From the IMG/VR virus record IMGVR_UViG_3300033146_007470, positions 1 to 53,938 of that record: a stretch of 53,938 nucleotides of DNA; one strand, written 5' to 3'. Positions 40,067 through 45,458 of this stretch are shown here, one piece after another. Position 1 is the first letter of the stretch. Each line of letters starts with the position of its first letter. The position numbers were made by a program, and so were the translations under genes. The notes beneath the pieces were generated by a model that was not told where the DNA came from, made no database searches, and saw nothing but the letters and a program-made list of their open reading frames with translations. Source of the stretch: a virus. Its lineage: Duplodnaviria > Caudoviricetes.

Positions 40067-40777
40067 ATGGAATTAAGTAGAGATGTACGTGCAATCATGA
40101 GCATTGCATACAATACGGCAAGAGAACAGGATAATGAGTATTTAACACCTGAACATGTTTTATACTCTATCCTTGATAATAACGAAGAAATTATTAATAA
40201 GTTAGAATTAAATACAGAAGAACTCATGGAAGATTTAAAAGTTTTCTTTGAAACCAAAATACCACAAACTACTGATAAAGATCCTATTGAGAGTCTGGGT
40301 TTCAATAATGTAATCCAGCGTTCAGTTCAACAGGTTGAGAATTCAAGTCGAAATATTGTTGAAGTTGGCGATGTTATTGTTGCCATCCATGATGAGAAAG
40401 GTTTCGGCCAATTTATTATGTTGAAGAATGGTATTGAAAGAATAACTCTTCTCCAAGCAGTAACAGAACTTCATGGCACTGACAACCAACCAGATTTGAT
40501 GCCAGCTGGAGGGCAAATTAAAGGGAAAAGAAAGAAAAAATCTCTCCTTGATGAATTCACCCTTGAAATGGTTGCTCATGCTAAAGCCGGTAAATACGAT
40601 CCTATTGTTGGCAGGGTAGACGAAATTGAAAGAACTGTTCAAGTACTCTGTCGTAAAAAGAAGAATAATCCAATCCATGTTGGTGAGCCAGGTTGTGGTA
40701 AATGTCTTCACGGAGAAGAAAAAATTAATTTATTAGTTTCTGACGAAATGTATAAAGAATTAAAAGAATTTATTTAA
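40067..40777 (+). CDS. clpA: ClpA part 1 (N domain to first Walker A) + 24-aa N-intein (40703-40774)
   Basis: EYLTPEH, DPIVGR..E, RKKKNNP..VGEPGCGK then CLHGEE... and stop. Confidence 0.92.
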   Translation: MELSRDVRAIMSIAYNTAREQDNEYLTPEHVLYSILDNNEEIINKLELNTEELMEDLKVFFETKIPQTTDKDPIESLGFNNVIQRSVQQVENSSRNIVEVGDVIVAIHDEKGFGQFIMLKNGIERITLLQAVTELHGTDNQPDLMPAGGQIKGKRKKKSLLDEFTLEMVAHAKAGKYDPIVGRVDEIERTVQVLCRKKKNNPIHVGEPGCGKCLHGEEKINLLVSDEMYKELKEFI

Positions 40778-41721
40778 TTTTTGTTTAATAGATTCAGATA
40801 CAATTTGTTTATTATATTCAGTTGTATCTGAATCCCATATTTCTATAACATCAAAATCGTCATTTTTAGCAAATTGAATTTTTTCTTGATCAAGTTTGTA
40901 AACTTCATTAGCAGATAAATGTGTAAATCTATGAGTCCAGTTATTCCATTCTTCTTCATTTAATTTTTCTTTATTGGGATGAACATGAGAACCGTTATAT
41001 TCAAATATAAGTTTAAGCGGTTTAATTGTAAAATCATAAAAGTACAACCTATTGTTTGATTTTATAAAGAATTCTCTATTGTTCTCAATACCTATATATA
41101 TTTTATTTATAGAAAATAATTTAATCATTTTATCATAAAATTCTTGAAATATTTCAAGGGATTGTTTAGAAGCTTTAAATATTGAAAAATTTTGTAAATT
41201 GTTTATACAAGTTTTACGAGATGTATCAACCCAGTTATTATATTTAATGGTTGCAGCTTCATACCCATATTTATGGACCATCTTATCAAATGAAACAGCT
41301 TTAGATTTATTCACTTTATTCATATCATTATTTTTATATAATGATTTTTGCCATTTATCATTTCTTTCGTTCATTTTTTATATTTGTTAGGATTTTCTTT
41401 ACGTTTTTTAACATATTTTAAAGCATTTTGTCTTTGTTTTTCTGAAATTTGTTGTACAGCTTCTGCTCGAGACCATCCGCGTTTAATCCAAAATTCTTGT
41501 TTAGTCCATGAAATGTTACCTATAAGTGTATAACAAAAATCATATAATTTTTTATGGTTTGACTTGTCACTATTATAAAAAAAATAATTAAGTTTAACTT
41601 CAACTTCTGGCATAATTATTTTGTATGACCGATTATGAAGATATTTATTAAATGTAAATTTTTTAAATTCTTCAAAGTCATTAGAGTTAAATATTGGTTT
41701 ATATTTATATGTTATAATCAT
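40760..41721 (-). pseudogene. antisense Vsr-like/PD-(D/E)XK endonuclease split into two ORFs (41371-41721, 40760-41374)
   Basis: ASKQS, FYDFTI..L..EYNG.H.HP; collinear with the intact paralogue 43174-44142. Confidence 0.8.
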
Positions 41722-41840
41722 TGTTTACCTTTACTGGAATAGGTATTTCCCTAAGCCAGATTTACTTAAAAATTATACTATTATCTTATTAATATGCAAG
41801 ATAATATTGCATAGTTATAACATATATAAGGAGAATAAAT

Positions 41841-43196: not shown

Positions 43197-44142
43197 TATT
43201 TATAGCAGCGATACATTTATTTATATTATATTCAGGTGTGTCGCTGCTCCATATAGTTATTACGTTAAATCCGTTATCTTTCGCAAATTTATTTTTTTGT
43301 TTATCTAATTCGTAATGATAGTCAGCCGATTCATTAGTATAACAATGTTGCCAATTATTCCATTCTTGTTCGTTTAATATATTTTTATTTGGATGGATAT
43401 GGCAACCATTATATTCAATAATTAAATTAAGTTCTAAAATTGTAAAATCATAAAAATATAATTTTTTATAATTTTTATTATATAATGAAAATTCATGGTT
43501 GTTGTCTATGCCGACAAATATTGATAAGTTATAATTTTGTAAATATTTTATTAATTCGTTAAATACGATGAGAGACTGTTTACTTGCTGTAGTAGGACTA
43601 GGTCCTGAGTTCAAAAGATTAACACGATTTTGTAAATACTTATCTAAACCGTGCTTTTTAATAAATTTTGCTTTAGGCAACCCTTTGGATTTGTTCACTT
43701 TATTCATATCATTATTTTTATATAATGATTTTTGCCATTTATCATTTCTTTCGTTCATTTTATTATTAGCTTCTTCTATTCCGTATTTTTGTATTAACTT
43801 TTTCATATTGTTAGGGTTTTCTCTCCGCTTTTTGGCGAAGGCATTTGCATTTATTGTTTGTAATTTTGATATTTTATTATTTGCTTCATTCTGTGTATAT
43901 CCCCGCTTAACCCAAAAATTTGTTCTATATCTAGATTTTTCGCCTATTAAAGAATAACAAAATGTTTTAAATTTTTTAAATCCTATTTTATCTGTATTAT
44001 TGTAAAACAAATTTAATTCTTGCAGCACATTATTTATAGATTTATAATTAAAACTATTTTTTAAATATTTATCCATAAACGCTATAAATTCGTCTATATT
44101 ATAACATTTAAAATATTCTTTATGCTTATATGTTATCAACAT
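43174..44142 (-). CDS. antisense Vsr-like/PD-(D/E)XK putative homing endonuclease
   Basis: FWVKRGY, ASKQS, FYDFTILELNLIIEYNGCHIHP, D..K...A...GF.V..IW. Confidence 0.85.
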   Translation of the reverse strand: MLITYKHKEYFKCYNIDEFIAFMDKYLKNSFNYKSINNVLQELNLFYNNTDKIGFKKFKTFCYSLIGEKSRYRTNFWVKRGYTQNEANNKISKLQTINANAFAKKRRENPNNMKKLIQKYGIEEANNKMNERNDKWQKSLYKNNDMNKVNKSKGLPKAKFIKKHGLDKYLQNRVNLLNSGPSPTTASKQSLIVFNELIKYLQNYNLSIFVGIDNNHEFSLYNKNYKKLYFYDFTILELNLIIEYNGCHIHPNKNILNEQEWNNWQHCYTNESADYHYELDKQKNKFAKDNGFNVITIWSSDTPEYNINKCIAAINTILNESL

Positions 44143-44270
44143 ATGACCTTCTTATTTGTTTCGGTATTGGTATTTCCCCATACCCGTTTATCTTTATATA
44201 ATATTGATTTTTATATCATTATTTATGAAGATAAAGCATATATAATAATAAGAAAATAAGGAGTTTATAT

Positions 44271-45458
44271 ATGGTAAAGGAAAAAATAAAAATTGGTGAA
44301 TTATTTGAAGCCATTTCAGAATTAGAAAATGTTAATTTTGAGGTAGGCAAAGAGATATTTCAAAATAATGAAATACAAATTAAAGATGAATTTGGCGATT
44401 ATAAAAATGTTCCTGGATTAATTGTTAAACAAGATTATATAAGAACAATAAAATTCGATAATAATGATGTTTTAAGATGTGCAAAAAAACATAAAATATG
44501 TATAGATCCTAAATCTGGCAAATGTATTTTAGCTGAAAATTTAAATGTAGGAGACAGTATTATCAATGCTTTCGGCATTGTTTTGACTGTCACATCTAAT
44601 ATAGTTTCGTCTAATATAGAAAATGTATATGATTTAGAAATAAATACAGATAAACATTTATATCAAACTTCAAATGGTATTGTGCATCATAATACTTTTT
44701 TGGTAAACAAATTAGCTGATACCATGGGACTTGCTTTTCATAGATTTGATATGTCTGAATACCAGGAGAAACATTCTGTTGCACGTCTTGTTGGTACTCC
44801 TCCAGGATATGTTGGATATGACGAAGGTGGTCTTCTTACTGATGCAATTAGAAAAGATCCTCATTGTGTTCTTCTCCTTGATGAAATTGAGAAAGCACAC
44901 GGTGATGTTTATAATATGCTTCTACAAATTATGGATTATGCAACTCTCACAGATAATCAGGGTCGAAAAGCAGATTTTAGAAATGTCATTATCATAATGA
45001 CATCTAACGCGGGAGCTAGAAATATTGGTTCTAAGGGAATTGGTTTTGGTTCAGTAAAACAAGGTGGAGAAGCAGTTGACGCTGCAGTAAAGAAAACGTT
45101 CACTCCTGAGTTTTTAAATCGTCTTGATAAAATTGTTACTTTCAACGATCTTGATAAAATTGTAATACGAGAAATTGTAAAAGCTGAAATTAATGAGTTT
45201 GAAACCATGTTAACATCTCACGAAGTATCTCTTCGAGTAACTGATGAAGCTTTAGATTGGTTTGTAGAAAATGGTTACTCTGAGGAATTTGGTGCAAGGC
45301 CAATTGCTCGACTTGTCGATGAGAAGATTAAAGATATCTTCGTCGATGAAGTATTATTTGGTGACCTCAAAAGCGGAGGAATTGCTGAAATCTCCGTCTT
45401 AGATAATGAAATTAAGATCACCACTCTTGATTTCCAACTAGAGAACGCTATCGCGTAA
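44271..45458 (+). CDS. clpA: 141-aa C-intein + ClpA part 3
   Basis: VYDLEI...NGIVHHN/T junction; RFDMSEYQEKH, LLLDEIEKAH, IGF loop, FTPEFLNRLD, GARP. Confidence 0.93.
   Translation: MVKEKIKIGELFEAISELENVNFEVGKEIFQNNEIQIKDEFGDYKNVPGLIVKQDYIRTIKFDNNDVLRCAKKHKICIDPKSGKCILAENLNVGDSIINAFGIVLTVTSNIVSSNIENVYDLEINTDKHLYQTSNGIVHHNTFLVNKLADTMGLAFHRFDMSEYQEKHSVARLVGTPPGYVGYDEGGLLTDAIRKDPHCVLLLDEIEKAHGDVYNMLLQIMDYATLTDNQGRKADFRNVIIIMTSNAGARNIGSKGIGFGSVKQGGEAVDAAVKKTFTPEFLNRLDKIVTFNDLDKIVIREIVKAEINEFETMLTSHEVSLRVTDEALDWFVENGYSEEFGARPIARLVDEKIKDIFVDEVLFGDLKSGGIAEISVLDNEIKITTLDFQLENAIA

Follow-up and report, generated by a model that had tools for sequence, protein, structure and literature searches.

The window analysed here is the whole 53,938 nucleotides (nt) of IMG/VR virus record IMGVR_UViG_3300033146_007470 (Duplodnaviria; Caudoviricetes), a metagenome-derived record with an estimated completeness of ~19% of the genome. 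It contains a clpS-clpA locus in which the ClpA unfoldase is encoded by three open reading frames (ORFs) on the plus strand. At their broken ends these ORFs carry the N-terminal (IntN) and C-terminal (IntC) parts of two putative split inteins, and putative homing endonuclease genes (HEGs) occupy the two gaps. We consider it likely, with a probability of about 85%, that two independent class-1 trans-splicing reactions rebuild both P-loops of the protein and give a ClpA of 754 amino acids (aa). The pieces of the locus are listed below by window position, D1 and D2 being the two AAA+ modules of ClpA.

39744-40052, plus strand: clpS (adaptor gene), 102 aa, immediately before the first clpA piece; Pfam ClpS, E 2.4e-27
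40067-40777, plus strand: ORF1, 236 aa; a 212-aa extein ending HVGEPGCGK, then CLHGEEKINLLVSDEMYKELKEFI (24 aa) and a stop
40067-40702, plus strand: extein 1, 212 aa, the N-domain of ClpA plus D1 as far as Walker A GEPGCGK; ClpA 3-220; Pfam Clp_N
40703-40777, plus strand: IntN1, the 24-aa N-intein CLHGEEKINLLVSDEMYKELKEFI with its stop codon; 65% identical to the IntN of the viral contig L002
41841-43196, plus strand: ORF2, 451 aa; IntC1 (137 aa), an extein of 288 aa, CLHKDEELEVMISDELYKKIIEIRSR (26 aa) and a stop
41841-42251, plus strand: IntC1, a 137-aa C-intein ending SNGLLNHN; closest relatives P0001 (70% identity) and L002, at the same site
42252-43115, plus strand: extein 2, the remaining D1 and linker up to the D2 Walker A FAGKTGVGK, 288 aa; starts TAITEGLAQ; ClpA 221-501; Pfam AAA and AAA_lid_9
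43116-43196, plus strand: IntN2, the 26-aa N-intein CLHKDEELEVMISDELYKKIIEIRSR with its stop codon
44271-45458, plus strand: ORF3, 395 aa; IntC2 (141 aa), then a 254-aa extein starting TFLVNKLA
44271-44693, plus strand: IntC2, a 141-aa C-intein ending SNGIVHHN; closest relative P0003, at the same site (58% identity)
44694-45458, plus strand: extein 3, D2 from the post-Walker A Thr to the C-terminus, 254 aa; Pfam AAA_2 and ClpB_D2-small

An earlier note on this DNA, made from the letters alone, had claimed that both Walker A motifs of ClpA are broken and that each is followed by a very short N-intein starting CLH and a stop. It had placed the matching C-inteins, ending HN/T, at the head of separate ORFs about 1.07 kb downstream, and had added the exteins up to a full-length ClpA beside clpS. 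This description was borne out throughout, including the lengths of the four intein parts; the gaps from stop to next start measure 1063 nt (ORF1 to ORF2) and 1074 nt (ORF2 to ORF3). Alignments made with phmmer against the PDB chains of ClpA (1ksf, 6uqe, 7uiv) are consecutive: residues 4-216 of ORF1 match ClpA 3-224 (E 1.6e-28), residues 137-426 of ORF2 match 220-502 (E 1.2e-92) and residues 144-389 of ORF3 match 504-747 (E 4.5e-75). Together the three exteins span Escherichia coli ClpA 3-747 with no gap, in the order of a single ClpA. In E. coli numbering the breaks fall between K220 and T221 and between K501 and T502, so that each separates the Lys of a Walker A loop from its Thr.

All three exteins are full length and lack internal stops, and together they amount to 212 + 288 + 254 = 754 aa, against 758 aa in E. 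coli ClpA. Walker B and the pore-loop segments are conserved, and an IGF loop aligns with the ClpP-docking IGL loop of the E. coli protein. The architecture is that of a ClpA, with Clp_N, the D1 and D2 AAA+ modules, no ClpB-type middle domain, an adjacent ClpS and only small gaps relative to E. coli. While the domain order is shared with the E. coli ClpA/ClpS system (1ksf, 6uqe, 7uiv), the window ClpA differs in being phage-encoded and in three pieces. Each piece has its own Shine-Dalgarno sequence, AGGAG 6 nt before the ATG of ORF1 and AAGGAG 7 nt before the ATG of both ORF2 and ORF3.

The intein parts carry the residues of a splicing intein at each border. Cys1 directly follows GCGK in IntN1 and GVGK in IntN2, both N-inteins begin CLH, and Thr stands at position +1 after the terminal HN of both C-inteins. 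An alignment of six Clp-hosted C-inteins (the two from the window and those of L002, L065, L076 and L039) contains eight invariant residues of interest, namely C68 and H72 (block B), Y116 and D117 (block F), N131, G132, H136 and N137. When the profile of these six was compared with solved inteins, the best match was 6dsl_B, 'Consensus engineered intein CatC' (E 4.8e-10), which agrees with the earlier note's assignment of the pair to the atypically split, short-N inteins. Further matches were the Pho RadA intein (5.6e-7), gp41-1 (1.2e-4), VidaL 6vgv (1.8e-3) and PolB16 8cpn (0.015). Pfam returned nothing on the window inteins except PT-HINT on ORF3, below the cut-off (E 7.4e-5), and PHROGs gave no match for IntC1 or IntC2.

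The position of the split can be estimated from relatives with unsplit (cis) inteins. In P0053, P0146, P0010 and P0147 a strand of the form CL..E.E and a helix-like segment are followed by a short linker and then by an IxIGxLF segment. The window C-inteins begin at this IxIGxLF segment, and IntN1 aligns with the cis inteins' N-terminal portion in P0053, P0010 and P0147. The window inteins therefore appear to be split after the first helix, at an S2-like position. AceL-TerL and GOS-TerL are split after the first helix, at S2, in the account given in PMC13014065. The same account gives an IntN range of 15-37 aa for natural atypically split inteins, with 25 aa for AceL-TerL and 30 aa for 'TerL CAT'; such inteins, of which Cat (6dsl), VidaL and PolB16 are examples, are also described in the available text of PMC10189870. 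Like AceL-TerL and Cat, the window inteins have a short IntN (24 and 26 aa, inside that range), a long IntC, Cys1 and an insertion point in a P-loop. Unlike AceL-TerL, GOS-TerL and Cat, they are hosted by ClpA, have Thr at +1 and sit as two different members of the type within one gene.

Putative endonuclease genes were found between the intein halves in both gaps. They lie antisense to clpA and one of the two is broken, points that the earlier note does not make:

40760-41374, minus strand: 3' part of HEG1, 204 aa, with a Vsr-like nuclease domain; 49% identical to HEG2 129-319; phrog_22677, E 7.5e-15
41371-41721, minus strand: 5' part of HEG1, 116 aa; 46% identical to HEG2 1-115
43174-44142, minus strand: HEG2, intact and free-standing, 322 aa; Vsr-like fold, from a structure model

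HEG1 overlaps the stop region of ORF1 convergently by 18 nt, and HEG2 overlaps the end of ORF2 by 23 nt. According to a DNA alignment with HEG2, HEG1 is broken by a 40-nt deletion that shifts the frame and leaves an ATGA overlap between its two parts; by this evidence HEG1 is decaying. Adjoining the deletion is a 79-nt stretch (41299-41377 in HEG1, 43683-43761 in HEG2) with 97% identity between the two genes, compared with ~65% elsewhere, and this patch looks like a product of gene conversion between the two cassettes. A contig from the run designated X1 holds 142 extra nt at the site of the window's HEG1 deletion, which suggests an intact HEG1 allele.

Database searches with the HEGs gave few matches. 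Pfam returned nothing, the PHROGs matches were limited to phrog_22677 (a family whose function is not known) with none for the 5' part of HEG1, and neither HEG2 alone nor a profile of five HEG sequences matched any PDB chain even at E<=10. Among 40 database homologues, three are named very-short-patch-repair (Vsr) endonuclease by their source. A single-sequence AlphaFold2 (AF2) model of HEG2 was dropped owing to its mean predicted local distance difference test score (pLDDT) of 39.3, and the model used was built on 42 sequences and reached 85.6. A Foldseek search with this model gave nothing at E<=0.001, its weak rows comprising AbaSI, Vsr, R2 and 3r3p. In VIA-align, HEG2 187-319 superposed on the catalytic domain of I-Bth0305I (3r3p_A) with Z 10.2 and a root-mean-square deviation of 2.7 Å over 95 of 97 residues, on 3hrl with Z 10.2, and on Vsr with Z 9.7 (1cw0_A) and 9.1 (1vsr). 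All 42 sequences share residues E217, D232, E243, H250 and K283; D280 is constant only across the five Clp-associated HEGs. On the basis of this model, HEG1 and HEG2 are predicted to be Vsr-like, EDxHD-type free-standing homing endonuclease genes.

The EDxHD prototype I-Bth0305I, as presented in the available text of PMC3239194 (structure 3r3p), would share with HEG2 the nuclease fold and the conserved acidic and His residues. A further likeness is a possible DNA-binding region at the N-terminus, largely helical in the HEG2 model. HEG2 differs in having no sequence-level PDB match and a longer spacing to the last Asp, and in standing free inside a split intein, whereas I-Bth0305I is found in a group I intron. 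The Vsr-like (EDxHD-type) family is present in half of the fractured loci of Dassa et al., going by the text of PMC2677866. Separately, HEG2 1-67 (43942-44142, minus strand) has a likeness to the ATP-cone regions of ribonucleotide reductase (RNR) R1 and NrdR that is too weak to interpret (Z 4.6-4.8).

Natural variants of the locus provide a second line of evidence. A 1199-nt contig of run X4 (record 23) contains an uninterrupted clpA. It covers window positions 40501-40692, 42262-43114 and 44703-44826 with 2, 7 and 2 mismatches, respectively; 40692 is joined to 42262 via 20 other letters encoding G-V-G-K-T-A-V, and 43114 to 44703 via 10 other letters encoding K-T-H-L. The first joint is likewise empty in record 16 of run X3. 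Relative to the window, the intein-free allele differs at 11 of 1169 extein bases (~99% identical), but at 16 of the 30 that border the joints (40693-40702, 42252-42261, 43115 and 44694-44702), where GVGK in the intein-free allele becomes GCGK in the window, TAVA becomes TAIT and THL becomes TFL. Because these 16 bases differ, the insert-free contigs represent other alleles and not RNA-spliced copies of the window sequence. Clustering of the divergence at the insertion sites is as expected of homing-site or co-conversion tracts, for which these bases are candidates, and the intein-free allele of X3 and X4 is a candidate target of the endonucleases.

More distant relatives complete the series. 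In L002, clpS is followed by a clpA split at the D1 site, where a 24-aa IntN and a 137-aa IntC lie on either side of an antisense 366-aa HEG. Extein 2 of L002 shares 77% identity with that of the window, and the D2 site of L002, GVGKTHLV, is uninterrupted. Unsplit mini-inteins within single ORFs occur at the D1 site in P0053 (945 aa) and at the D2 site in P0146 (919 aa). L124 is split at the D2 site, with a 26-aa IntN and a 30-nt gap that holds no endonuclease gene, and the D1-site split of L083 has a 57-nt gap that also lacks one. As both keep the split without a HEG, the split form persists by itself. Taken together, these intein-free, singly split, cis-intein and HEG-less relatives support precise in-frame insertion and recent mobility.

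The earlier note had called a doubly fractured AAA+ chaperone unusual and had proposed a search for other split clpA loci. The search covered 202 viral-contig loci obtained with three queries (80 kept of 163 relatives, 42 kept, and 80 kept of at least 598), with some contigs fetched twice. Split Clp genes, recognised by an IntC fused to a Clp extein at the start of an ORF, were present at 14 of the 202 loci, on 12 distinct contigs:

Split at the D1 site only: L002, L082, L116
Split at the D2 site only: L039, L065 (the same as L084), L071 (the same as L085), L076, L124, L125, L126, L129
Split at both sites: L083

A second doubly fractured Clp gene, of ClpC/ClpB-like type, thus lies at 5377-10584 of L083, its D2 split carrying a same-strand 493-aa HEG. 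P0026 is another middle piece, headed by an IntC and ending in a 31-aa IntN. Given these two cases, the three-piece layout is rare but not unique. The word 'unusual' in the earlier note should be softened, since split Clp ATPase genes are fairly common in viral contigs and at least two further double splits, L083 and P0026, are known from the search. L065, L076 and L083 have the HEG co-oriented with the Clp pieces, and L002 has it antisense. P0123 (771 aa), a Clp D2 fragment with an atypical IntC at its start and, in D2, a large second intein with an endonuclease-sized insert, illustrates how heavily these phage Clp genes have been colonised.

The family extends well beyond Clp genes. When the six-IntC profile was searched among 1.84 billion sequences, it matched 1586 representatives at E<=1e-3, a number that falls to 553 at E<=1e-10. 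Within the best 150, the domain stood at the very N-terminus (the split form) in 128 and was internal in 22, more than one intein-like stretch was present in 49, and the host was a Clp ATPase in 17. The C-terminal junctions, scored in 200 cases, were HN/T (105), HN/C (45), HN/S (44) or other (6). Ten non-Clp members were scanned, of which five were hosted by a T4-type large terminase and one each by RecA, a DnaB-like helicase, an AAA_5 ATPase and an SF2 helicase, with one giving no hit. Upstream of most of the 22 internal copies is a P-loop-like (G/S)K followed by Cys. These hosts and contexts identify the family as a P-loop-targeting one, and as the same family to which the terminase inteins belong.

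A tree of 41 chosen IntC domains, 29 of them Clp-hosted and 12 from other hosts, contains two deep clades with 100/100 support each. Both window inteins fall in the HHN/NHN clade, and the terminase-hosted P0033 falls in its sister, the SHN clade. The window's D1 intein clusters with the D1-site inteins of P0001 and L002 (99/93), its D2 intein with the D2-site intein of P0003 (100/97). The two thus belong to site-specific lineages and are not sisters, a point beyond the earlier note. The second cassette therefore more likely came from the D2 site of another phage than from copying within the gene. Within the SHN clade, D1-site inteins are nested among D2-site ones (support 93/99 and lower), which hints at one jump between paralogous P-loops.

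We propose that two related mobile cassettes invaded the phage clpA at the DNA encoding each Walker A loop. Each cassette would be a mini-intein of the AceL-TerL/Cat type with a Vsr-like HEG inserted after the first strand and helix. Because the HEG is on the opposite strand, the intein, and clpA with it, would be cut into separately translated pieces. There would be three of these, each with its own Shine-Dalgarno sequence: the N-domain up to GCGK followed by IntN1; IntC1, the D1 body up to GVGK and IntN2; and IntC2 followed by the D2 body. Each short IntN would dock on its cognate long IntC, completing the HINT fold, and two class-1 reactions (Cys1 thioester formation, attack by Thr+1 and Asn cyclisation) would join the exteins with intact GCGKT and GVGKT loops. 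The spliced ClpA would work with the adjacent ClpS, and neither ATP site would be present before splicing. Mobility of the cassettes appears recent, and the phage population is polymorphic for them. A bolder version, which we put forward tentatively and regard as doubtful, is that the locus holds a natural, mutually orthogonal pair of short-IntN inteins kept as a three-piece gene and still homing among coexisting intein-free, singly split and doubly split alleles at ~99% extein identity. Double trans-splicing would then also gate ClpA activity post-translationally during infection, since no ATP site would exist until the loop is re-ligated.

Several observations weigh against double trans-splicing, or against parts of the proposal built on it. 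The block B motif of inteins is usually TxxH, and its Thr is replaced by Gly or Ala in the window inteins (CGSKH and CAKKH), although block B of the solved relative CatC is likewise deviant (CSDNH). The D1 loop of the window reads GCGK, whereas both the intein-free allele and L002 have GVGK. Complex prediction was applied to one pair, IntN1/IntC1 (ORF1 190-236 with ORF2 1-170), and gave a score of 0.60 against 0.00 for the best control, which was graded as weak support; contact agreement between runs was at least 72% and the pLDDT of the partner at least 58. The mark used was reached by 51 of 78 solved complexes and by 2 of 108 mismatched pairs, and scores no higher than 0.60 came from only 5 of the same 78 solved complexes and from every one of the 4 mismatches, out of 180, that passed. 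Moreover, this pass may reflect mere likeness, because a similar complex (Cat, 6dsl) has already been solved. Cassette 1 is no longer autonomously mobile, since its HEG is frameshifted. As for the variants, runs X1 and X2 may come from the window's own sample, and X3 and X4 are presumed to be DNA, which is a guess only; no RNA run is listed as holding this stretch. Finally, the two N-inteins are 42% identical (10 of 24 positions), as are the two C-inteins (57 of 136), so that cross-reaction between the pairs is possible. From this arises an alternative that we think unlikely, namely that splicing occurs but the pairs are not cleanly orthogonal, with full-length ClpA being only part of the product. 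IntN2 reacting with IntC1 would yield a cyclised or concatenated middle piece, and IntN1 with IntC2 a ClpA without the D1 body; the IntC-extein-IntN layout of ORF2 is the one that engineers use for cyclisation. Such cross-talk is favoured by the CLH start and SDE.YK motif that the N-inteins have in common and by the membership of both similar C-inteins in the same deep HHN/NHN clade. However, each window intein groups with same-site inteins of other phages and not with its neighbour. Double splits are also seen in another lineage (L083, P0026), and a predominance of by-products would make such genes difficult to maintain. In the engineered system described in the available text of PMC12707363, strict orthogonality held between unrelated split inteins, which provides context from inteins other than this pair.

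The remaining alternatives do without splicing. It is very unlikely, in our judgement, that the inteins are inactive and the pieces either assemble non-covalently or belong to a dead clpA wrecked by mobile elements. The decayed HEG1, the missing block B Thr and the weak complex prediction would fit this, and non-covalent rescue of a phage RNR split by an endonuclease gene is reported in the available text of PMC3045599. Nevertheless, the exteins are full length, free of internal stops and score highly as ClpA, both inteins retain their splicing residues, which relatives also conserve, and a strong Shine-Dalgarno sequence has been kept at each piece. HEG-less split forms persist in other phages. 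In addition, the backbone of both P-loops is interrupted between K and T and would have to be rejoined for ATP to bind. The earlier note had itself named misassembly and removal of the intervening DNA at the RNA level as findings that would overturn it, and both were looked at. Misjoining of the cassettes to clpA during metagenome assembly is hardly credible, even though the record is metagenomic, the ~99%-identical intein-free contigs imply a mixed population and the 79-nt HEG repeat could mislead an assembler. Independently assembled X1 contigs cross the borders, with one of 1826 nt bridging the 3' end of ORF1, HEG1 and IntC1 and others bridging the HEG2 start to IntC2 and IntC2 to extein 3. 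L002, another viral contig, has the same D1 arrangement, and frames, junction residues and Shine-Dalgarno sites are exact at all four borders, which is not expected of chance joins. Excision as a group I or II intron has, by our estimate, a negligible chance of being correct. Vsr-like endonuclease genes do occur in group I introns as well, according to the text of PMC2677866, and insert-free contigs exist. Yet an Rfam search over 39600-45700 at E<=1 returned no family, hence no group I/II intron model, the insert borders coincide with in-frame intein borders (Cys1 and HN/T), and the joint-side differences mark the insert-free contigs as other alleles.

With double trans-splicing thus retained as the preferred explanation, the locus can be set beside known systems. 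The fractured genes in the available text of Dassa et al. 2009 (PMC2677866) have eight DNA synthesis/repair enzymes as hosts and one fracture per gene, and one terminase locus among them is split at an unusual point, with a 122-residue C-part. The arrangement defined there as a fractured gene is found twice within the window clpA, apart from one feature: in that set all three coding regions lie on one strand, whereas HEG1 and HEG2 are both on the minus strand. The window also differs from that set in its host, a proteostasis AAA+ unfoldase as opposed to an enzyme of DNA synthesis or repair, and in having two fractures and three pieces. The words 'Clp', 'chaperone' and 'ATPase' appear nowhere in the text of PMC2677866, and the only Clp mention in the text of PMC4760082 is chloroplast ClpP. 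Outside subscription journals and supplementary tables (e.g., Novikova S5-S7, Dassa S1), where an example might still be found, the literature, with PMC10189870 among the texts, gave no instance of ClpA, ClpB or ClpC carrying a split intein and none of a natural gene with two split inteins. The nearest parallel is engineered: Humberg et al. 2025 (PMC12707363), in its available text, describes tandem trans-splicing with two orthogonal split inteins, which shares with the window the three segments and a middle piece that has IntC in front and IntN behind. That layout is a laboratory design, while the layout in the window is natural and both of its inteins are of the short-IntN type. What is known, then, is the fractured gene, the atypically split intein and the Vsr-like HEG; what differs is the ClpA host, the double fracture, the antisense HEGs and the co-existing empty-site alleles.

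Other features of the record were noted around the locus. A terminator-like element follows ORF3:

45477-45498, plus strand: hairpin with a 9-pair stem (5 GC pairs) and a T run, TTTTTTTT; a consensus match only

Promoter-like sites did not exceed those in shuffled sequences (38 versus a shuffle mean of 40.0). The 10-mer GGTATTTCCC is present at 41742-41751 and 44169-44178, once in each of the two divergent intergenic regions that separate a HEG start from an IntC start; this motif is not enriched in the window, where it has 3 matches, a number reached by 43 of 100 shuffles. Megablast of 39700-45500 against phage records returned no match. A ClpP gene was not found in the 54-kb record, an absence that is uninformative in a ~19% fragment. 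Two paralogous free-standing endonuclease genes at 38808-39692 and 34939-36027 (both plus strand) have repeated DUF723/zinc-ribbon modules and a C-terminal nuclease-like domain, and match phrog_559 'HNH endonuclease' (E 7.5e-82 and 3e-98, respectively). One of the two immediately precedes clpS, and a homologue occupies the same place in L002 (1653-2546); the region around clpS-clpA is dense in selfish nuclease genes. Further away, NAD-related genes are located at 48711-49736 (NadM-Nudix-like cytidyltransferase/NUDIX, phrog_395) and 53056-53856 (NAD synthetase, phrog_11189), and 29021-30175 matches the PurA-like 2-aminooxy adenylosuccinate synthetase family.

The window clpA extends fractured genes from the enzymes of DNA metabolism to a proteostasis motor, and its product would be a natural protein requiring two trans-splicing events. 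It also supplies two candidate split inteins, naturally side by side, with N-fragments of 24 and 26 aa that are short enough for peptide synthesis, and this pair are candidates for three-segment ligation. For the inteins of phage Clp genes, the allele series permits a direct test of two ideas, gene breaking as modelled by Dassa et al. and homing from one paralogous P-loop to another.

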